Under the pieces are notes generated by a model. It was given only the letters and a program-made list of their open reading frames with translations, had not been told where the DNA came from and did no database searches. A stretch of DNA of 64,000 nucleotides from the NCBI GenBank assembly GCA_016865865.1, contig VGOC01000001.1:513-64512 (forward strand). Direction: 5' to 3'. Shown here piece after piece: positions 20,264-32,634 of the stretch (position 1 is its first letter; each line of letters starts with the position of its first letter). A program made the translations under genes and the position numbers. The DNA comes from Chloroflexota bacterium. Lineage in GTDB: Bacteria > Chloroflexota > Anaerolineae > Anaerolineales > UBA11858.

Positions 20264-20391
20264 ATATTGGTAACTATTCAGCCTAAGCGAGAGGTGCCCC
20301 GAAAAAAGGGTGTGCGTGGGGGTGCGCAGCACCCCCACGCACACCCTTTTTTCGGGAACTTTCTCTCGATGGCTGAGCAGTTACCTAATAT
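20264..20391. repeat. 128-bp palindromic MITE-like element, full copy
   Basis: Arms ATATTGGTAACTATTCAGCC..CCCGAAAAAAGGGTGTGCGTGGGGGTGC / GCACCCCCACGCACACCCTTTTTTCGGG..GGCTGAGCAGTTACCTAATAT. Second copy at 32511-32634. Confidence 0.85.
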
Positions 20392-22718: not shown

Positions 22719-23366
22719 TCATCCTTTCGACTGGTTGATCGAGCGGGCGATGAACCATTGGGCGGCGAAATAGGCGCTCAAGTTCAGGCCGCGCCCGGCC
22801 AGGAAGGGGAAGCGGAATTTGTTGATCGCCAGGATGGTATCGGAGAGCACGAAGAGCAGCGCGCCGATGAAGGCGAATAACACCCAACGATCCCGGGCTT
22901 GATCCCATTGATCCCAGGCGGTGTAGGCCATGGTCAGGATCACGACGATATAGAAGATCACCGGGAAGGTCATCTCTCCCAAGCCGGGCAATAAGATCAG
23001 GAAGATTCCCACCCCAAATGCCAGATACAGCAGCGCCGGAAGCCAGGCCATGCGCCAGGGTCGCTTTCCCATGAAGGCGCCGATATACACCAGGTGGGCA
23101 ATCAGGAAGCTGACCAATCCAAAGACGAACAAGTCGAACGGCAGCATCAGCATCACATCGCCAGCCAGGGAGAAGATCAGGCCGATGATCACCAGGTTTC
23201 TATACCGAATGATGACCGGCGGTTTCGACAGCGCTGCCAGAGCGATGATCAGCGAGGTGGTCAGGGGTTTGAAGATATAAATCTGGATGGGCGGGCCCTG
23301 ATATTCGGCCCACATGTGCAGCAGGGCGGAGACGATGATGAGAGCTGTCAGGATGAGAGTTTGCAT
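22719..23366 (-). CDS. YhhN-family lysoplasmalogenase-like membrane protein
   Basis: Polytopic. 'FKPLTTSLII', 'FSLAGDVMLM' and 'GALLFVLSDTILAINKF' are YhhN-type motifs. Confidence 0.78.
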   Translation of the reverse strand: MQTLILTALIIVSALLHMWAEYQGPPIQIYIFKPLTTSLIIALAALSKPPVIIRYRNLVIIGLIFSLAGDVMLMLPFDLFVFGLVSFLIAHLVYIGAFMGKRPWRMAWLPALLYLAFGVGIFLILLPGLGEMTFPVIFYIVVILTMAYTAWDQWDQARDRWVLFAFIGALLFVLSDTILAINKFRFPFLAGRGLNLSAYFAAQWFIARSINQSKG

Positions 23367-23520
23367 GGCGATTACCTCCATTCATTCAGGGGAACTGGGG
23401 CGCGGGGGGAGAAAAGGGGAGAACCGAACTGCTTTGATTGTAGTTGAGGCGGTGGAGGAGGTCAAGTTATCGTGAGGAGGCCATTTATTGGGGAGTTGCG
23501 GATATGATAAACTTATTTTT

Positions 23521-24372
23521 GGCGAATGGAATTCGCGGCTGCTGCGCGAAGCCTGCCTGCGTCAGCGAATGGGTCAGCGAATAGGATTCGCGGCTGCCGC
23601 GCGAAGCCTGCCTGCTCAGCGAATGGAATTCGCGGCTGTCGTGCGAAGCCTGCCTGCGCAGGCCGACTTACGTGGGGCAACCAGCGGAGGCTGGTTTTGT
23701 CAGGCAGCGTCGAATTTATTCGATGTGTGAATGGGCGAAAGGAAGCGGTTGTCGCGCGAGGAATGCCTCGCCTGCGTCAGCGAATGGAATTCGCGGCTGT
23801 CGTGCGAAGCCTGCCTGCGCAGGCTGACTTACGTGGGGCAACCGGCGGAGGCTGGTTTTGTCAGGCAGCGTCGAATCTATTCGATGTGTGAATGGGCGAA
23901 AGGAAGCGGTTGTCGCGCGAGGAATGCCTCGCCTGCGTCAGCGAATGGAATTCGCGGCTGTCGTGCGAAGCCTGCCTGCGCAGGCTGACTTACGTGGGAC
24001 AACCGGCGGAGGCTGGTTTTGTCAGGCAGCGTCGAATTTATTCGATGTGTGAATGGGCGAAAGGAAGCGGTTGTCGCGCGAGGAATGCCTCGCCTGCTTA
24101 GCGAATGGAATTCGCGGCTGTCGTGCGAAGCCTGCCTGCGCAGGCTGACTTACGTGGGGCAACCAGCGGAGGCTGGTTTTGTCAGGCAGCGTCGAATTTA
24201 TTCGATGTTTGAATGGGCGAAAGGAAGCGGTTGTCGCGCGAGGAATGCATCGCCTGCGTCAGCGAATGGAATTCGCGGCTGTCGTGCGAAGCCTGCCTGC
24301 GCAGGCTGACTTACGTGGGGCAACCAGCGGAGGCTGGTTTTGTCAGGCAGCGTCGAATTTATTCGATGTTTG
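23521..24372 (+). repeat. Tandem array of hairpin-rich REP-like units (~161 bp)
   Basis: Units start at 23619, 23780, 23941, 24101 and 24262 (periods 161/161/160/161). The last unit is truncated at about 24372. Two short degenerate partial units precede them (23521-23618). The copies differ by only a few substitutions. Confidence 0.95.
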
Positions 24373-24421
24373 AAAGCGTCGAAGAGGGACAGTTTTTGGT
24401 GTAGAATTTAAGGTAGGACCA

Positions 24422-24853
24422 ATGAAAAAGTATTCCGCCCATACCGAGCTATATATCCATATCATCTGGGGAACCTGGGATCGTTTGCCGTTGATCACCG
24501 AGGCCATCGAACGGCGTTTGTATGCCGCAATCGCGGCTAAATGCCGCGAGTTGACATGTATCCCACTGGCTATCGGCGGCATTGAAGATCACGTGCATCT
24601 GCTGGCGCGCCTGCATGCTCCGATCTCGGTTTCGGAGCTTGTCAAAGGCGTCAAAGGTTCTTCTTCCCATTTGGTCACCCACGAGATCACGCCGGGTCAG
24701 TTCTTCAAATGGCAGGGAAGTTATAGCGCCTTCTCTGTCAGTCCGGCGGACCTGCCGCGCCTGGAGGTTTATATAGCCAACCAGAAGCAGCACCATGCCG
24801 CCAACGATCTGACCCTTGAGTGGGAGACATTGAACCCAGAAGCGGAAGAATAA
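24422..24853 (+). CDS. IS200/IS605-family Y1 (HUH) transposase-like protein, RAYT-like
   Basis: 'YIHIIWGTWDRLPLI', HUH motif 'EDHVHLLARL', 'VKGVKGSSSH', 'WQGSYSAFSVS' (candidate catalytic Tyr), 'YIANQKQHH'. Flanked on both sides by the same repeat. Confidence 0.85.
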   Translation: MKKYSAHTELYIHIIWGTWDRLPLITEAIERRLYAAIAAKCRELTCIPLAIGGIEDHVHLLARLHAPISVSELVKGVKGSSSHLVTHEITPGQFFKWQGSYSAFSVSPADLPRLEVYIANQKQHHAANDLTLEWETLNPEAEE

Positions 24854-24860
24854 CAGGCCA

Positions 24861-24981
24861 GCGAATGGAATTCGCGGCTGTCGCGCGAAGCCAGCCTGCG
24901 CAGGCTGACTTACGTGGGACAACCAGCGAAGGCTGGTTTCGCAAGCCAGCGTCGAATTTATTCGATGCGTGAATGGGCGAA
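24861..24981 (+). repeat. Additional copy of the REP-like unit downstream of the Y1 transposase gene
   Basis: GCGAATGGAATTCGCGGCTGTCGCGCGAAGCCAGCCTGCGCAGGCTGACTTACGTGGGACAACCAGCGAAGGCTGG...CGAATTTATTCGATG. Same orientation as the upstream array. Starts 7 nt after the tnpA stop. Confidence 0.9.
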
Positions 24982-25014
24982 TTCATTCGATATTCTTGGA
25001 AAGGAGCAGGCCTC

Positions 25015-27114
25015 ATGGATCCCATCGCGTTAGCTTTATTAGCAAGCGCTCTATCGCCCGCCTTGCTAATCGTGATCGAGAAGATCGGCGAAAAACTGGT
25101 GGAAGTAGGGATCGAACCCACCATCGAGATGGCCCGCGCCAAATTGTTGAAGGGTTATGAGCAAGAGAAAGCAGAACAAGAGTTGCGTGCAGTGGTGATG
25201 GCCGCTCTTGATGACACCCGCCACAAATTGCCCGATGCGTTCGACCGTTCCAAGATCACCAATAAACTCACCGGACGGACAGCAGAAACCTACGCCTTGC
25301 TAGCCGCCGCGGCGGTGGAACTGGCCGACCCTGACCCGGCCAAAATACCCGCCAGGCTGCTTGCCGACCTCGAACTGGAAGAGTCCCACCGTGATCTGCT
25401 GGCATGTTTCTTGGGTAATTTCCGCCCGCGGTTGGCTGATACGAAGACATTCACTCGCCTGATCGAATATTCCAATGACCTCGACCGCCGTGGCTTGCTG
25501 GCCGGGCTTGCCGTAGATGTCGCCGGGATCGCTCGAGGTGTATCTGAAATGGCGCAGAATCTGGAGCGTCTTGTCGCGTATTTTCGGATCGCTGCCGACG
25601 AAGACGAAGCGCTTCGGCAGTACCTGGAGACCCTGCAGGACAGATTACGCTGGCTGCCCCTGCCGCTGGCTGCCCCCAGCGCGGCAAGCGGCCAAACCGA
25701 TGCTGAACTGCGCTGCGTGTACGTGCCTCTGTCGCTCAGAGATCTGGAAGCGGAAGCAGAAGCCCGCCGCAGGGCAGAACGCTTCGATCGCTCCGCCGCC
25801 GAGATGGAGAATGAACTTCGAGAGATAGAAGCCCGACCTGTCGGATTGGGAGAAGTAATCGCCCGGCATGAGCGTTTTGCCATCATTGGCAAGGCAGGTT
25901 GCGGTAAGACCACCCTGCTCAAAATGGCTGCCCTGGCCTTTGCGGAAGATCGAGCCAAAGAAGACCTGGATTGGCAGGGGGAGCCCTTGTTTCCAATCTT
26001 CGTGCGGCTGCGCAATTTTGGCGCCTTCTTGAGCGATCATCCGGAGTATAGAGAACCCGGGCCGGGCGCGTTGACCGCTTATCTTACCCATCATTTCAGC
26101 ATCAGCTACGATCTGGACCTGACTACCAGGTTCTTTGCCCAGAGGCTCAACGCAGGGGGTTGTCTGATTTTGTTGGATGGTCTGGACGAAGTTTCTCAAG
26201 GGCGGCCTGATGTCGCCCAACAGGTGGATGCTTTCATCCGTTTTTATGTTTCCAAAGGTAAGGGCAACCGTTTTGGGCTGGCCTCTCGACCGCGTGGATT
26301 CGAGATGGTTCAAGTCTATTTGCGCGCTTCTCGATTTGCGGTCTGTGATGTCAATCCCCTCACACCGCAGGGCATCCGCCGCCTGACCGCCAGATTGTTG
26401 GACTGGATCGTCAACGATCCCCGGCAGCTTGCTGAAGACCGCCAGAATCTCCCCGATAAGATTCTGGCCTCGGATTCGCTCACCGAGCTGGCCGCCACGC
26501 CGCTGTTTTGTACCGCCTTGACGCTTGTCTACAAGTGGATGGGTTCAGACCTCCCTCAACGGCGGGTGGATGTGCTGGAGCAGGTGGTTGACCTGCTGTT
26601 GGTCTTCTGGAAAGCGCAAGACCCGGATCTGGAGAAGAAGCATGATCTGGCTGTGCTGGATGGCACCGATGTTAGCCTCGATGATTTGGAAATCGTCGCT
26701 GCCAACAAACGCAGCCGTCTGAGCTATCTGGCATACCGCATGCAGACTGCGGACATCAAGACCGAAGTGGACGCGGATATTGCCTGCGCCTGGCTGCAAA
26801 GCTACCTGGAGGATGAAGAAGGTTGTGATCCTGATGTAGCCAACCGATGGGCGGCAGGTTTCTTGCGTTACGCTCACGAATATAGCGGCCTGTTCGTGGA
26901 AGACAAAGGGCCGGGTGTGTATGCTTTCACGCATGAAGGTTTTCGCGAGTATCTGGCGGCGCGTGAGTTGGTGGACCGCGGTGATGCGGTCTTTACGGAT
27001 GAAGTGTTGGAACACTTGTTGGAGGATGCCTGGGAATCCGTCATCCTGCTGGCGGCTGCCTTTCGGGGCTATTCGCGGAAGGCGCGGCGAGATTTGATCA
27101 CATGCGCCTTATAA
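25015..27114 (+). CDS. NACHT-domain STAND NTPase (NLR-like) with unassigned ~280-aa N-terminal domain
   Basis: Walker A 'FAIIGKAGCGKTTLLK', Walker B 'CLILLDGLDEV', and downstream 'ASRPRG' and winged-helix-like blocks. AAGGAG at 25001 precedes the ATG at 25015. Confidence 0.85.
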   Translation: MDPIALALLASALSPALLIVIEKIGEKLVEVGIEPTIEMARAKLLKGYEQEKAEQELRAVVMAALDDTRHKLPDAFDRSKITNKLTGRTAETYALLAAAAVELADPDPAKIPARLLADLELEESHRDLLACFLGNFRPRLADTKTFTRLIEYSNDLDRRGLLAGLAVDVAGIARGVSEMAQNLERLVAYFRIAADEDEALRQYLETLQDRLRWLPLPLAAPSAASGQTDAELRCVYVPLSLRDLEAEAEARRRAERFDRSAAEMENELREIEARPVGLGEVIARHERFAIIGKAGCGKTTLLKMAALAFAEDRAKEDLDWQGEPLFPIFVRLRNFGAFLSDHPEYREPGPGALTAYLTHHFSISYDLDLTTRFFAQRLNAGGCLILLDGLDEVSQGRPDVAQQVDAFIRFYVSKGKGNRFGLASRPRGFEMVQVYLRASRFAVCDVNPLTPQGIRRLTARLLDWIVNDPRQLAEDRQNLPDKILASDSLTELAATPLFCTALTLVYKWMGSDLPQRRVDVLEQVVDLLLVFWKAQDPDLEKKHDLAVLDGTDVSLDDLEIVAANKRSRLSYLAYRMQTADIKTEVDADIACAWLQSYLEDEEGCDPDVANRWAAGFLRYAHEYSGLFVEDKGPGVYAFTHEGFREYLAARELVDRGDAVFTDEVLEHLLEDAWESVILLAAAFRGYSRKARRDLITCAL

Positions 27115-27193
27115 AAGGTGGACGCTCTGCGCGCCGCAGGCGCTGAAAATTGGCTTCATGCCTTGCTGGTTGCCGGGAGCATGGCCAGGGACT

Positions 27194-28354
27194 ATGGAAA
27201 AGCATCTACCGCCCCCCGACCGCAAAAAGGTGGAAGATGCCTTGAAAGCAGTGGCTTCCAGCCCAGACTACTCACCACCCCAGCGCGCCGACGCCGCCGA
27301 CGCCCTCGACCGCCTCGGCTACACCCCCGAGGGCTTGCACCGCTTCATCCCAATCCCTACTCCCCAATCACCCAATTACTATATTGCTCAATACCCCGTC
27401 ACCAACGCCCAATACGAGCGCTTCCTCAAGTCGGGCGACTTTGCCGAAGAACGCTTTTGGACGGCCTTCCCCAAATTCAGCCATCCGAAGGAGGGCAAGG
27501 GTGACGAACTGCGCCTGGAAACCATCGCCTACATCGGCGACTGGGGCGATGAAGGCTGGGAATGGTATAGCAACCCGAAGGATTTTTGGGCGGATAAAGT
27601 GCTAAAAGATGATGCTGGCGTGATCTACCCCCGCTACTGGCACGACCCGCGCTTCGGCATCGCCCGCCGCGGTGTGCCCGTGGTGAGTATCACCTGGTAC
27701 GAGGCCAACGCCTATTGCAAGTGGCTGGCCGAACACTGGGGTGAACGCGAAGAAGCCAGAGAAAACCCCGAACTCGACCCGGCGCAACTTACCTTCCGCT
27801 TGCCCACCGAAGCCGAGTGGATTGCCGCCGCCAGTCCCCCTCTCCCTGTGGGAGAGGGGCTAGGGGTGAGGGGGGATGAGCCGGAAGACCGTTACCCCTG
27901 GGATGACGGGATACGGGCGAAGGATGACCGGGAAGACATCACCCGCCGCGCCAATGTGGATGAAAGCAAAATCGGCCGCACCACGCCGGTGTGGATGTAT
28001 CCTCTGGGGGTAAGTCCCCGTGGGGTGTGGGACCTGGGCGGCAATGTCTGGGAATGGCAGGCGAATTTCTATGACAAGGATCAATACGCGTTGCGGGGCG
28101 GCTTCTGGTACATCGGTCTTAATCTCGCCCGCCTCGCCGTCCGCCGCAGGCACGACCCGGACGGCTGGTACTCGGGCCTCGGTTTTCGGGTGGTGGCGGC
28201 GTTCTCCACGCTCTTCTCTCCCCGCCGGAAATGCAATGTGGCTGAAAGGCTCCACTGCCGAGGCCATGTAGAAGAATGGCGGGGCGCATTCCTGGCCGCG
28301 ACCCTCACCACTTCGGCTTTGCTCAGTGCAAGCCCCAGCCCCTCTATCTGCTAG
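27194..28354 (+). CDS. FGE-sulfatase (SUMF1) / C-type-lectin-fold domain protein with DGR-VR-like C-terminus; possibly the detached C-terminal part of the NACHT gene
   Basis: 'YYIAQYPVTNAQYERFL', 'PVVSITWYEANAYCKWL', 'RLPTEAEW', 'GNVWEWQANFY', 'LRGGFWYIGLNLARLAVRRRHDPDGWYSGLGFRVV'. Confidence 0.8.
   Translation: MEKHLPPPDRKKVEDALKAVASSPDYSPPQRADAADALDRLGYTPEGLHRFIPIPTPQSPNYYIAQYPVTNAQYERFLKSGDFAEERFWTAFPKFSHPKEGKGDELRLETIAYIGDWGDEGWEWYSNPKDFWADKVLKDDAGVIYPRYWHDPRFGIARRGVPVVSITWYEANAYCKWLAEHWGEREEARENPELDPAQLTFRLPTEAEWIAAASPPLPVGEGLGVRGDEPEDRYPWDDGIRAKDDREDITRRANVDESKIGRTTPVWMYPLGVSPRGVWDLGGNVWEWQANFYDKDQYALRGGFWYIGLNLARLAVRRRHDPDGWYSGLGFRVVAAFSTLFSPRRKCNVAERLHCRGHVEEWRGAFLAATLTTSALLSASPSPSIC
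27836..27874. repeat. In-frame mini-palindrome insertion (CCCCTCTCC..GGAGAGGGG..GGGGTGAGG type)
   Basis: cccctctccctgtgggagaggggctaggggtgagggg encodes 'PPLPVGEGLGVRG', between the conserved 'RLPTEAEW' and 'YPWDDG' blocks of the FGE domain. Confidence 0.75.
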
Positions 28355-28375
28355 GGAGAGGGGTGACGGTGAAGG
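28339..28375. repeat. Mini-palindrome of the same family, containing the stop codon of the FGE-domain ORF
   Basis: cccctctatctgctagggagaggggtgacggtgaagg. The TAG at 28352-28354 lies in the hairpin loop. Confidence 0.65.
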
Positions 28376-28378
28376 CCG

Positions 28379-29461
28379 ATGGAATCGAATATGTACCGCC
28401 AATTGTATTCCTGGGACAACCTTCTGCTCGCCTATCATAAAGCTGCCAGGGGCAAACGCGGCTATTCGAATGTCGCAGCGTTTGAGCATCATCTCGAAGA
28501 CAATTTAATGCAATTGCAGCATGAACTACAGACATTCACTTATTGCCCTGGATGTTACGATAGCTTCTATATCCATGAACCCAAGAGACGTTTGATCTCA
28601 GCGGCCCCGTTTCGAGATCGAGTTGTGCATCACGCGCTATGCAATCTGATCGAACCGCTTTTCGAGCGGCTATTTATCCCCGATTCGTATGCCAATCGGA
28701 TTGGCAAGGGAACACACCGGGCTTTGGATCGTGCGCAGGCTTTCGCCCGACGATATCCTTAGAGACTGTTTTAAAAGTCGCCAGAAACCACAGATAAACA
28801 CAGATGAACACCGATTTTCTTGATGAACAGCCGTCTTTTATCGCCGAAATCCCTTTTATCTGTGTTCATCTGTGGCCGATTTGAGTTTTAAAACACTCTC
28901 TTACGTGCTGCAATGCGATATCCGACAGTTTTTTCCATCGGTTGATCATTTGCTTCTTCACAATTTGCTGGCAAACAAGATCGAAGATGACCGCATCATG
29001 TGGTTGATTGACCGCATTCTGGAGAGCGGGCATGAGGTTCTTACCGATGAATATGAGATGGTTTATTTTCCAGGGGATGATCTCTTTGCCGCGAATCGGC
29101 CGCGTGGTTTACCGATTGGTAACCTGACCAGTCAGTTTTGGGCAAATGTCTATTTGAATCCACTCGATCACTTCGTCCAGGTGCGCATCCCAGAACAGTG
29201 ACAGAGGGATTTCCTTTCTTGGGGTTTGTCGTTTTCCCTGAGCATCGCCGCTTGAAACGCCGCAAAGGGATATATTATCTCCGGAAGCTGCGTCGTTTGC
29301 TCGACGCATACCAACGCGGTGAAATCGCGCTCGATGATGTCACTGCGAGTGTGCGGGGATGGGCTAATCATGTTCGTTACGGAGATACCTGGGGTCTACG
29401 AAAGGCCATCTTTCGCACACTGATACCAGCAAAATCGCCTCCTGCCACCCCCCATTCTTGA
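28379..29461 (+). pseudogene. DGR-type reverse transcriptase, disrupted (MITE insertion plus internal deletion of the YxDD region)
   Basis: Three fragments in three frames. (1) 28379-28759 '...[17 protein letters not shown]...ARRYP'. (2) 28902-29180 '[16 protein letters not shown]...[25 protein letters not shown]'. (3) about 29195-29461 '[23 protein letters not shown]...VRGWANHVRYGDTWGLR'. No YxDD motif appears in any frame. Confidence 0.85.
28762..28900. mobile_element. 139-bp MITE with 16-bp terminal inverted repeats and TTA target duplication
   Basis: TIRs GAGACTGTTTTAAAAG (28762-28777) and the reverse complement of GTTTTAAAACACTCTC (28885-28900), 14/16 matching. TTA at 28759-28761 and 28901-28903. 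Internal CACAGAT(A/G)AA subterminal inverted repeats. Confidence 0.85.
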
Positions 29462-29636
29462 CCAGAGTTCAATGATGGGTTTCGAGTGACCCCCCTCTCG
29501 TCCCCCCATTTGCGCCACGGGGACCCACGCCGCCCAGTGATTCCCAGGCGCTAATGGGGGAAAGAGGGCGGTCGCGAGGAGCAGTGGATAGATCTCCAAT
29601 ATCCACTATCCAACCTCCAACTTCCAACCTCCACCC

Positions 29637-30581
29637 TCACCCCTTAACCTCCGTCACAAGCATCCTCACCGCTCCTGCTGCCTGCAAAGTAGCCGCAATT
29701 TGTTCGGCTTGTTCCGGAGCGGCCAGGGCAATCATATTGCCGCCGCGCCCGCCGCCGGAGAGTTTGGCGCCAGACGCGCCGGCTTCGTTCGCCGCCCTGA
29801 CCAGCTTATCCAATTCAGGAGAAGAGACTCCCATTTCGACCAACAGCGCGTGGCTCTCGTTCATCAGCGGCCCGAGGCGGTCGGGGCGTCCCTGCTCGAT
29901 GGCCTGGCGGGCCGACCTTGTGATGCTGCCCACGGCGGCGAAGAGCGTCTCGTAGCGTTGGGGGTCGGCCTGCCAGCCCGCATGCACATCTCCAACGGTC
30001 TCTTTGGTCGGGGTGGCGATTCCGGTGTCGCCGATGACGATGGTGAAGGGCTTGCTGATGCTGAAGGTTTCGATGAGTTGCTGCTTGATGAAGTAGACAG
30101 GTTTGGCGTAGGCGACCACGGTGTTATCTATGCCCGAGGGAGTGCCGTGATGGATTTTCTCGACTTCGAAGGCCAGGGCGGATACTTGCTCATCGGGGAG
30201 GGGATGGCCGAGGAAGCCCGCCAGCGCCCGGATGACGGCCACTGAGACGGCTGCGCCGGAACCAAGGCCGGAGGCCACCGGGATGGTCGAGGTCACCTTC
30301 AGGGTGCAGGCTGGAAGGCGGCTGATTCCCAGGGAGGCAGTAACACCCTCGATCGCGGCAACCAACGCATGGGTCGAGTCCAGCTCATCCAGCCGCCTGT
30401 CCAGACCAATCCCAGGGGCGAGAATCCGCACCGCGCCCGCGTTTCCACGAAGTTCGGGCGTGACCGTTGCCGTGGCGCGCACTTGTGCCACGGGCGCAGC
30501 GATAGCGGGCTGTCCGTAGACCACGGCGTGTTCGCCGAATAAGATGATTTTTCCAGGGGCAGAGGCGGTAAAGGATGGCAT
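29637..30581 (-). CDS. mvk: Mevalonate kinase (GHMP kinase)
   Basis: 'APGKIILFGEHAVVYGQPAIA', GHMP motif 'PVASGLGSGAAVSVA', and C-terminal 'GAKLSGGGRGGNMIAL'. Confidence 0.85.
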   Translation of the reverse strand: MPSFTASAPGKIILFGEHAVVYGQPAIAAPVAQVRATATVTPELRGNAGAVRILAPGIGLDRRLDELDSTHALVAAIEGVTASLGISRLPACTLKVTSTIPVASGLGSGAAVSVAVIRALAGFLGHPLPDEQVSALAFEVEKIHHGTPSGIDNTVVAYAKPVYFIKQQLIETFSISKPFTIVIGDTGIATPTKETVGDVHAGWQADPQRYETLFAAVGSITRSARQAIEQGRPDRLGPLMNESHALLVEMGVSSPELDKLVRAANEAGASGAKLSGGGRGGNMIALAAPEQAEQIAATLQAAGAVRMLVTEVKG

Positions 30582-31698: not shown

Positions 31699-32604
31699 AT
31701 GCCTAAGAAAATACGCGTTGATCTCCTGCTCGTCGAGCGCGGCCTGGCGGAGAGCCGCGCCCAGGCCCAACGCCTGGTGATGGCCGGGCAGGTGCGCGCC
31801 GATGGTCAGGTGGTGGATAAGCCCTCTTCGAAGGTGGATTCTGGGGTGGATTTGACGGTAGATAGCGGGCCGCGGTTCGTCTCGCGCGGCGGAGAGAAAT
31901 TGCAGGCGGCCTTCAAGGCCTTCGGTCTGGACGTGGCCGGGCGAGTCTGCGCCGACGTGGGGGCGTCTACGGGAGGGTTTACGGATTGTCTGCTGCAGCA
32001 TGGGGCGGCGCGCGTCTATGCGATGGATGTCGGCAAGGGCCTCCTGCATTGGAAACTGCGCAATGACCCGCGGGTGGTGGTCATGGAGGGGACCAACGCC
32101 CGTTTTGTGGAGAATCTGCCCGAACCGGTCGGTTTCGTGACCATAGACGCCTCGTTCATCTCGTTGAAGATATTGCTGCCCGTGGTGCGAGGGTGGACCT
32201 CACCCCCCTCTCCCCTCTCTGCGCGCGGAAAGGGGGGAGGGAGCCGGGGGGTGGGGGGTGAGGTGCTGGCGCTGATCAAACCGCAGTTCGAAGCCGGGCG
32301 GCGCGTGGCGGCGCGGGCGAGAGGAGTCATCCGCGATCCTGAGATTCACCGCCAGGTATTGGGAGAAATCTTATCTTTTGCCGAACAACAGAGATACAGC
32401 GTGCGCGGATTGATCGAGTCTCCCATCACCGGCCCCAAGGGAAATCGAGAATTCCTGGCCTGGTTTTCTTACCCGGCCTCCGAGAGCATCGCCTGGAAAG
32501 ATAGCATCGAGGTAACTACTCAGCCAAACGGGGAAGTTCCCGAAAAAAGGGTGTGCGAAGGGGGCGCAGCCGCTTTGCGTTCGCACACCCTTTTTTCGGG
32601 CTAA
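31699..32604 (+). CDS. tlyA: TlyA-family rRNA 2'-O-methyltransferase (S4 + FtsJ domains) carrying two repeat-derived segments
   Basis: 'RVDLLLVERGLAESRAQAQRLVMAGQV', 'DVGASTGGFTDCLLQHGA', 'IDASFISL', 'LIKPQFEAGR'. An internal ~20-aa insert lies at 32197-32264, and the C-terminal tail comes from the 32511-32634 element. Confidence 0.85.
   Translation: MPKKIRVDLLLVERGLAESRAQAQRLVMAGQVRADGQVVDKPSSKVDSGVDLTVDSGPRFVSRGGEKLQAAFKAFGLDVAGRVCADVGASTGGFTDCLLQHGAARVYAMDVGKGLLHWKLRNDPRVVVMEGTNARFVENLPEPVGFVTIDASFISLKILLPVVRGWTSPPSPLSARGKGGGSRGVGGEVLALIKPQFEAGRRVAARARGVIRDPEIHRQVLGEILSFAEQQRYSVRGLIESPITGPKGNREFLAWFSYPASESIAWKDSIEVTTQPNGEVPEKRVCEGGAAALRSHTLFSG
32197..32264. repeat. In-frame palindromic insertion (full ACCTCACCCC...GGGGTGAGGT type) inside tlyA
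   Basis: acctcacccccctctcccctctctgcgcgcggaaaggggggagggagccggggggtggggggtgaggt encodes 'TSPPSPLSARGKGGGSRGVGGE', between 'LPVVRGW' and 'VLALIKPQFE'. Confidence 0.8.
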
Positions 32605-32634
32605 TCCGTTCGATGGCTGAGCAGTTACCAATAT
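32511..32634. repeat. 128-bp-family palindromic MITE-like element, second copy
   Basis: GGTAACTACTCAGCC..CCCGAAAAAAGGGTGTGCGAA...TTCGCACACCCTTTTTTCGGG..GGCTGAGCAGTTACC. Supplies the last ~30 codons and the stop of tlyA. Confidence 0.85.

Follow-up and report, generated by a model that had tools for sequence, protein, structure and literature searches.

Repetitive extragenic palindromes (REPs) and their REP-associated tyrosine transposases (RAYTs) are the textbook example of a domesticated transposase accompanied by a within-genome population of non-autonomous repeats. These systems are tied to Y1 proteins of class 2 and are known mostly from Proteobacteria. In this study, we analyzed a locus within a window of 64,000 nucleotides (nt), taken from contig VGOC01000001.1 of a Chloroflexota bacterium (assembly GCA_016865865.1), where a sequence-only reading had noticed a tandem array of hairpin-rich units of about 161 bp, an IS200-like Y1 transposase gene and a further unit downstream of that gene, and had proposed a RAYT/REP-like locus in a Chloroflexota host. 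The observation itself is confirmed by Tandem Repeats Finder, BLAST and the Pfam and NCBIfam profiles, and the relatives of the locus indicate an Anaerolineales-like host. The REP/RAYT interpretation is partly supported: what stands is the pairing of gene and repeat, seen in units on both sides of homologous genes, in co-divergence and in genomes with one gene and tens of units, and what falls is the class of the protein, which is not a class-2 RAYT. We propose that the locus is probably a REPtron-like module, composed of a single-copy gene for a predicted Y1/HUH single-stranded DNA nuclease of subclass 1.2 and its cognate repeat. It would work like a REPtron, but it lacks the class-2 signature, the GTAG foot and, in this genome, the dispersed population.

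In the account of TnpAY1 proteins by Quentin, Siguier, Chandler and Fichant (2018, BMC Genomics 19:475, PMC6006769), subclass 1.2 has the signature DH[IV]H, WQ and YIKNQKEHH, a median length of 148 amino acids (aa) and a mean of 1.7 copies per genome; it is listed without REPs and generally without IS200-type ends, and its members come mostly from Cyanobacteria and Bacteroidetes. No paper after 2018 that describes repeats of subclass 1.2 was found in a search of the literature. We read the present locus as a REPtron-like system for a subclass that has been reported as REP-less.

The product of the Y1 gene (coordinates of all features are given in Table 1) matches Pfam Y1_Tnp with 73 bits and the NCBIfam IS200 equivalog with 58.9 bits against a cut-off of 55, and no other NCBIfam model matches it at E < 0.01. 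When solved structures are searched by sequence, IS608 TnpA is the best match (E = 1.7e-7) and E. coli TnpA-REP (4ER8) gives no match at E < 1; the AlphaFold model (pLDDT 81.6) has its best fold matches in IS608, ISDra2 and Sulfolobus TnpA (Foldseek E of about 1e-8), with 4ER8 ranked 30th (E = 3e-5). The HUH motif reads EDHVHLL, and its residues H57 and H59 are invariant among 29 relatives, as is the KWQG motif; in the tyrosine motif, YIANQKQHH, residues Y117, Q121 and H124 are at least 90% conserved in the same relatives and H125 is invariant. Because DHVH, KWQG, YIANQKQHH and a length of 143 aa, with a short C-terminal tail, equal the published signature, the window protein is, judged by its motifs, a TnpAY1 of subclass 1.2, and is distinct from both ordinary IS200 TnpA and class-2 RAYTs. 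The sequence-only reading had placed the catalytic tyrosine in WQGSYSAF. Since the catalytic Y127 of IS608 TnpA (VKQYIENQ) is matched in the alignment by Y117 (EVYIANQ), the catalytic residue is instead most likely Y117, although the tyrosine of WQGSYSAF (Y101) is still invariant among the 29 relatives. As far as the alignment tells, the window enzyme is intact in all catalytic positions.

The phylogeny leads to the same placement. In a tree of Y1 proteins from the genome set analyzed here, with no reference sequences from PMC6006769 included, the class-2 proteins (Y---NP) form one clade (100/100) and the ordinary IS200 TnpA proteins another (99/100). The window protein lies outside both, among the Y---Q--HH sequences and next to an 83%-identical protein from a Chloroflexota metagenome-assembled genome (MAG). 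A class-2 RAYT identity was rejected on the basis of the motif (Y---Q--HH, not Y---NP), the search of solved structures and the tree. The family is large, with more than 1300 homologs in the protein collection, many of them on very short contigs, and 476 relatives in a collection of species genomes, mostly from Anaerolineae and other Chloroflexota but also from Cyanobacteria, Poribacteria, Elusimicrobiota and Armatimonadota.

The array at the window locus has a 161-bp period (Tandem Repeats Finder, 23606-24374: 4.8 copies, 97% matches, score 1454), and short-period rows at 23522-23661 correspond to two partial units. In a BLAST search of the whole assembly with one unit as the query, the five array copies are 97.5, 100, 98.8, 96.3 and 97.5% identical to it (the last over 122 nt), a further 40-nt partial match lies at the locus, and the unit 3' of the Y1 gene is 91.1% identical over 123 nt. 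Two distances given earlier need a small adjustment: the array ends 47 nt before the ATG, not 49, and the downstream unit starts 6 nt after the stop codon, leaving a gap of 5 nt, rather than 7 bp after it. Comparison of the flanks of homologous genes shows that only 104 nt of the 161-bp period form a conserved core. All of the hairpins that the sequence-only reading had listed are present in the array, and across the family four of these are kept by covarying changes. The first partial unit joins the next copy through a GCCTGCG microhomology, by our reading of the sequence. The 57-nt spacer that recurs after cores 1-4 folds with a z of only -1.5 to -2.1, and may be a degenerate third module.

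The core follows the order H1, linker, hairpin A, variable spacer, hairpin B, complementary linker and H4. H1 has a 6-bp stem and a GAA loop (GCGAATGGAATTCGC at the window locus) and H4 a 6-bp stem and a TTC loop, while hairpins A and B have 7-bp stems with CTNC and GNAG loops, respectively. The second linker is complementary to the first, and the second half of the unit is by design the reverse complement of the first half. Two inverted modules of about 50 nt thus form a doublet with two-fold symmetry, and each module contains two hairpins: an A/T-rich hairpin with a 6-bp stem, a linker of about 15 nt and a G/C-rich hairpin with a 7-bp stem, whose loop reads CTNC on one strand and GNAG on the other. 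The linker reads GCAAC..TTGCGAAG across the family and GGCTG..GCGAAG at the window locus. To the earlier question whether copies occur as inverted doublets, the answer is that the unit itself is one, with GAA/TTC and CTNC/GNAG loops.

When 43 non-redundant units, drawn from many genomes, are aligned, pairing in the four hairpins is 97.7-99.3%, and changes on both sides are found in 24 of the 36 pairs. None of 500 shuffles reached the observed values, and in controls with slid partners the pairing falls from 93.9% to 24-38%. Long-range pairing between the linkers is weaker, at about 81%. We take this as a constraint that acts on DNA, on both strands, and not on RNA, because G-U pairs are nearly absent from the four hairpins (0-2 of the 43 sequences per pair) and because the unit profile matches both strands equally; half-units also occur alone. 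An array unit (23777-23884) does fold better as top-strand DNA than as bottom-strand DNA (-27.2 vs -19.4 kcal/mol), and the downstream unit (24859-24966) folds equally well on either strand; the asymmetry arises through G-T pairs, and is true of the array unit but not of the downstream unit or the family. The unit matches no Rfam family at or above threshold. A CRISPR array was considered and rejected because the intervening "spacers" are themselves repeated; CRISPR-DR28 matched hairpin A only below threshold (29.9 vs 35 bits). The bases that precede H1 are variable (gccc, agcc, atcc and others), with no GT[AG]G or CGTC foot; instead, the loop of hairpin B contains a conserved GNAG. The subclass 2.4 REPs of Cytophaga hutchinsonii (GTAG-GGGCGAAT-TGA-ATTCGCCC; supplement of PMC6006769) resemble H1 apart from their GTAG foot.

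To assess the association of gene and unit, we scored a unit or half-unit within 200 bp of the gene at 79 loci whose proteins are 53-83% identical to the window protein. Units lie on both sides of the gene in 56 loci and on one side only in 19, some of which are cut by contig ends, and three or four loci have none. Runs of at least two units are present in 31 of the loci and of at least three in 11, and the array of the window is therefore a habit of the family; the long compound unit and its head-to-tail amplification, which had been regarded as unusual, are family-wide. In nine loci, cyanobacterial ones included, the gene sits exactly between a left half-unit and a right half-unit, and for this reason the unit looks like a gene-less fusion of the two element ends. 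The closest relative (locus L024) has only a left half-unit, upstream of its gene. The similarity between units tracks the similarity between proteins (Spearman 0.455; 0 of 2000 Mantel permutations). No unit lies within about 0.8-1 kb of the class-2 RAYT-like (Y---NP) genes in three genomes (G051, G042 and G041), or of the ordinary IS200 genes in three others (G045, G049 and G050), whereas the Y---Q--HH genes of the same genome set do carry units. These results show that the association is family-wide and specific to subclass 1.2.

Two Anaerolineae MAGs (L033 and L036) have syntenic loci at 86% nucleotide identity that differ by a precise indel of one unit (111 nt) about 200 bp upstream of the gene, and the gene neighbours differ among other relatives (L005, for example, has other neighbours). 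The gene thus keeps its place in the short term and shifts in the long term, with the number of units changing quickly. The distribution of the gene is patchy, with a match in 17 of 41 relatives, and same-genus genomes are without it at the window site. The remaining unit of L033 is without part of its H4.

In some relatives, the units are dispersed far beyond the gene. We searched 12 genomes with a covariance model built from gene-adjacent units, counting matches on both strands. One genome (G051, 7.2 Mb) holds at least 150 model matches, that is at least 75 sites, on dozens of contigs, with one gene of the clade; another, which consists of one 5.2-Mb scaffold (G042), holds 85 matches (about 42 sites) between 0.2 and 4.5 Mb, with one gene at 56% identity and two distant ones. 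Three more (G041, G049 and G050) have 32-37 matches and one gene each, and four (G043, G044, G047 and G048) have only the gene-adjacent copies. A single gene match at E <= 1e-10 was found in six of the 11 other genomes, and the gene is single-copy in this genome and in G041, G047 and G049-G051. Where a genome holds more than one, the copies are only 68-87% identical in nucleotide sequence, and no near-identical gene copies were found in any genome examined. One gene with many units is the hallmark that has been used for RAYTs (Bertels et al. 2017, PMC5581495).

Of 20 units sampled in G051, 10 are free of outer inverted repeats and of target duplications. Five of these ten plain units (L105, L106, L110, L112 and L117) have TAATAA(A/T) 3 nt outside one end, which may reflect a target preference but is seen in too few units to claim TAATAAA as a conserved insertion target. 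Units often sit at the centre of larger, unrelated inverted repeats, as do others in G051 (L108, L109, L116 and L118-L122; inverted repeat CAGCAATTCTCAGTTTGG..., with direct repeats of 12-14 bp outside) and one in the present genome (C10:39127-39230; CTGGTGATTACCC...GGGTAATCACCAG). Such units reflect either insertion into the centres of palindromes or capture by different miniature inverted-repeat transposable elements (MITEs).

In the genome that carries the window (G000 in our numbering; 3.25 Mb in 168 contigs, of which C1 holds the window), a profile search found 23 unit sites, which comprise seven at the locus, the solitary consensus-like unit on C10 and about 15 diverged relatives, whose identity to the local unit is about 70%. 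These relatives are carried inside a 130-bp element, MITE-B (C19:2883-3012, C23:19739-19868, C67:11902-12035, C75:14170-14299, C90:8558-8687, C93:7235-7364 and others), which is a chimera of a four-hairpin unit and the surrounding termini of a second element, MITE-A, with 14-20 nt shared. Copies of the very abundant MITE-A measure 110-115 bp, have the termini GTAACT(A/G)CTCAGCC...GGCTGAGCAGTTAC and contain at their centre a G/C hairpin with A/T runs on either side; the element is represented by 365 terminus matches and 122 complete copies, of which 110 have an 8-bp target duplication. The terminal inverted repeats (TIRs) and target-site duplications (TSDs) of MITE-B point to a DDE transposase, not to the Y1 enzyme, and a TIR/TSD element has therefore been the vehicle by which units of this lineage spread in this genome. 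The GGCTG after H1, the T-A closing pairs and an identical H4 are common to the local units, the MITE-B units and those next to the closest homologs. The units at the locus, as read from their sequence, have neither TIRs nor a target duplication. In Logan unitigs, which derive from lake-water metagenomes, the flanks are covered about 19-21x and words of the array up to about 95x; this ratio is consistent with about five copies and speaks against a large number of further copies missing from the assembly. Excision joints were not seen in Logan contigs, data that are not able to show their absence.

Several observations weigh against a REPtron-like module. Neither BLAST nor a motif scan nor k-mer depth shows the exact unit anywhere in this genome but at the locus, and the 20-mer and four of the five hairpin motifs of the sequence-only reading occur nowhere else in the assembly with two mismatches allowed, which leaves this instance without the population that defines REP/RAYT systems. 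Three of five complete MITE-B copies, found by their end patterns, have perfect 8-bp duplications, and about half of the 20 units sampled in G051 lie within an outer inverted repeat. The count of dispersed units rests on the model of gene-adjacent units and includes matches on both strands. The long-range stem is weaker in the array units than in the downstream copy, which could mean decay. Because the exact unit has not spread and related units have done so only as the cargo of unrelated TIR/TSD MITEs, we infer that the system is dormant or young in this genome.

If the module does work in the manner of a REPtron, then, by homology with IS608 TnpA and E. coli TnpA-REP, a dimeric enzyme would bind the hairpins of the unit on single-stranded DNA and cleave through Y117 at a metal site formed by HUH and Q121, and gene-less doublets would be excised and reinserted, or copied, in trans. 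The five-copy array most likely grew, or was made uniform, in place, through unequal recombination among its units or slippage, because its copies are 96-100% alike, against 91% for the downstream unit, and because the partial units are joined at the microhomology; reinsertion beside a resident copy is a possible alternative route. On a wider scale, we would give about an even chance to the proposal that subclass 1.2 nucleases widely operate a REPIN-type system of their own, in Chloroflexota, Cyanobacteria and further phyla, based on a doublet of about 100 nt made of two-hairpin modules, with the subclass intermediate between autonomous IS200 elements and domesticated RAYTs, and with units that may prefer the centres of unrelated palindromes or MITEs, such that Y1 and DDE enzymes both propagate the same unit.

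The same data may be viewed as the remains of an ordinary low-copy, autonomous insertion sequence (IS) of the IS200 family, in which the modules are the left and right ends, gene and ends move together, and the units are derivatives that lost the gene by deletion, comparable to MITEs or palindrome-associated transposable elements, and pile up beside it. The nearness of the protein to IS608, ISDra2 and IS200 TnpA in sequence and fold, the IS200 equivalog cut-off that it just passes, the nine genes placed between half-units, the varying neighbours, the same-genus genomes without the gene and its patchy taxonomy are all in keeping with such an element. We nevertheless find it rather unlikely, since near-identical gene copies are lacking in the genomes examined, the locus is syntenic in two relatives that have diverged to 86% identity, the units exceed the gene by up to at least 75 to 1, and the two ends are inverted copies of each other, whereas IS200/IS605 ends carry hairpins on the same strand. 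If the units were instead spread by DDE transposases as the cargo of TIR-type MITEs, with the Y1 gene merely in or beside them, one would expect what is seen among the dispersed relatives in this genome, namely termini shared with MITE-A and 8-bp duplications in both elements, and in the sampled G051 units that lie inside another outer inverted repeat. However, the other half of that sample and the gene-adjacent units have neither outer repeats nor target duplications, and the outer repeats vary between genomes while the unit and its gene partner stay constant, which makes this explanation improbable.

A role as structured RNA, either as genes or as cis-elements such as a regulatory leader or a small RNA of the Y1 gene, would account for an array that lies upstream of the gene in the same orientation, for the strong conservation of the structure and for the better fold of the array unit on the top strand. 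It is hard to reconcile, however, with the near absence of G-U pairs, which fits a constraint on both DNA strands, with a two-fold symmetric unit whose model matches both strands about equally, with the equal folding of the downstream unit, or with units that lie on either side of the gene and far from it. Neither an Rfam family at threshold nor an RNA run that holds the Y1 gene was found, and we regard this role as very improbable. Least credible of all is a local satellite, an array produced by slippage with no functional tie to the adjoining gene. The sequence-only reading had linked such a satellite to two outcomes, a unit that occurs nowhere else in the genome and a protein that clusters with ordinary IS200 transposases; the exact unit is indeed found at this locus only, but the protein does not group with ordinary IS200 in the tree. 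The array copies are more alike than the flanking copy, as slippage or unequal exchange predicts, yet gene and unit are paired in 75 of the 79 homologous loci at non-syntenic sites, protein and unit co-diverge, and compensatory change keeps the hairpins across phyla. A REPtron-like module is thus the reading that we prefer.

In three same-genus genomes, the YhhN-family gene directly abuts the homolog of the gene at 29637-30581, and the segment between them in the window is therefore a variable island. As the whole 6.25-kb island is missing there, this comparison does not delimit the Y1 module itself. A consensus scan of the Y1 leader gave no sigma-70 match. Copies of MITE-A lie in the window at about 20264-20391 and 32511-32634, and many contigs of the assembly end in this element. 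In the closest homolog of the window protein (L024, 3001-3432; 83% identity), R replaces the metal-binding Q of Y-x3-Q (YIANRKRHH). A 525-aa open reading frame elsewhere in the assembly (C47:11961-13538; L002 1468-3045, minus strand) has a C-terminal Y1_Tnp-like domain (54 bits) in which HUH reads DYLHW and F stands at the tyrosine position; its product looks like a long N-terminal region joined to a Y1 domain that has lost catalysis.

Table 1. Features of the repeat array, the Y1 gene and the surrounding island, in window positions
Feature	Position	Strand	Evidence
YhhN-family gene, left border of the variable island	22719..23381	-	Pfam; synteny
Island of about 6.25 kb: array, Y1 gene, unit, NACHT, FGE-like, reverse transcriptase (RT) relic	23382..29636	.	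synteny
Partial unit 1: left module only (H1, linker, half of hairpin A)	23521..23564	+	sequence; nhmmer model positions 1-49 at C1:24033-24081 (window 23521-23569); Tandem Repeats Finder
Partial unit 2: degenerate left module	23575..23618	+	sequence; Tandem Repeats Finder
Unit core 1: H1, linker, hairpin A, hairpin B, linker, H4	23619..23722	+	nhmmer C1:24131-24234; BLAST 97.5%
57-nt spacer with GCGAGG-AATG-CCTCGC hairpin, recurring after cores 1-4	23723..23779	+	sequence
Unit core 2	23780..23883	+	BLAST, nhmmer
Unit core 3	23941..24044	+	BLAST, nhmmer
Unit core 4	24101..24204	+	BLAST, nhmmer
Unit core 5, nearest upstream of the gene, without the 57-nt spacer after it	24262..24365	+	BLAST, nhmmer
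Y1 gene leader: TAGAAT -10-like hexamer and AAGGTAGGA ribosome-binding site, by eye	24366..24421	+	sequence
TnpAY1 gene, assigned to subclass 1.2, 143 aa: HUH H57/H59, WQ 97-98, Y117-x3-Q121-x2-H124 H125	24422..24853	+	Pfam, NCBIfam, alignment, fold, tree
Downstream unit core, orientation as array, 91% identical to array units; repeat tail to 24981	24861..24964	+	BLAST, nhmmer

Taken alone, the window locus is one ordinary member of a family pattern. If that pattern is what we propose, then the REP-type phenomenon extends to a class-1 subclass on the IS200 side and to Chloroflexota and Cyanobacteria, a second independent system becomes available for the recognition of hairpins by Y1 enzymes, and the subclass becomes a candidate for a stage midway from an insertion sequence to a domesticated nuclease. 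For annotation, it would explain many breaks that leave short contigs and many calls of "IS200/IS605 transposase" in MAGs of Anaerolineae.

Among the described systems, subclass 1.2 as listed in PMC6006769 agrees with the present family in its DH[IV]H, WQ and Y---Q--HH motifs, in a length of about 145 aa with a short conserved C-terminal tail, in a low copy number per genome and in its position as the sister of ordinary IS200 TnpA. It differs in that the genes of the members studied here are bordered, on one side or on both, by a conserved four-hairpin unit, and in that the close relatives are mostly Anaerolineae. REPtrons, or REPIN-RAYT systems (E. coli TnpA-REP, 4ER8; the REPINs of Pseudomonas; Nunvar 2010; Bertels and Rainey 2011, PMC3116915; Ton-Hoang 2012), likewise consist of a single-copy Y1 gene flanked by palindromic repeats, with a doublet of two inverted repeats as the mobile unit, clusters of repeats beside the gene, a many-fold excess of repeats over the gene in some genomes and the co-divergence of repeat and gene. 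However, their protein belongs to class 2 (Y---NP) and the present one to class 1 (Y---Q--HH), and a single hairpin of 20-40 nt takes the place of our module of about 50 nt with two hairpins. The foot of the hairpin, GTAG/CGTC in those systems, is absent here, with GNAG in the loop instead, and their repeats are dispersed in the host genome, whereas the exact unit of the window is not, although units are dispersed in other genomes of the family.

The IS200/IS605 elements (IS608, ISDra2 and IS200) provide the closest fold and share HUH, Y-x3-Q and the hairpin ends beside a small tnpA gene. Unlike them, the present family has no multi-copy identical elements and no tnpB partner, its ends are inverted copies of each other, and gene-less doublets far outnumber the gene. 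The clusters of bacterial interspersed mosaic elements in E. coli known as BIME-2, from the work of Gilson and Bachellier, are tandem arrays of alternating REPs. They resemble the window array in that doublets of REPs are arranged head-to-tail with fixed spacers in one intergenic region, but BIME-2 arrays occur chromosome-wide and are built of REPs of 35-40 nt, whereas the only array of the present unit lies beside the nuclease gene.

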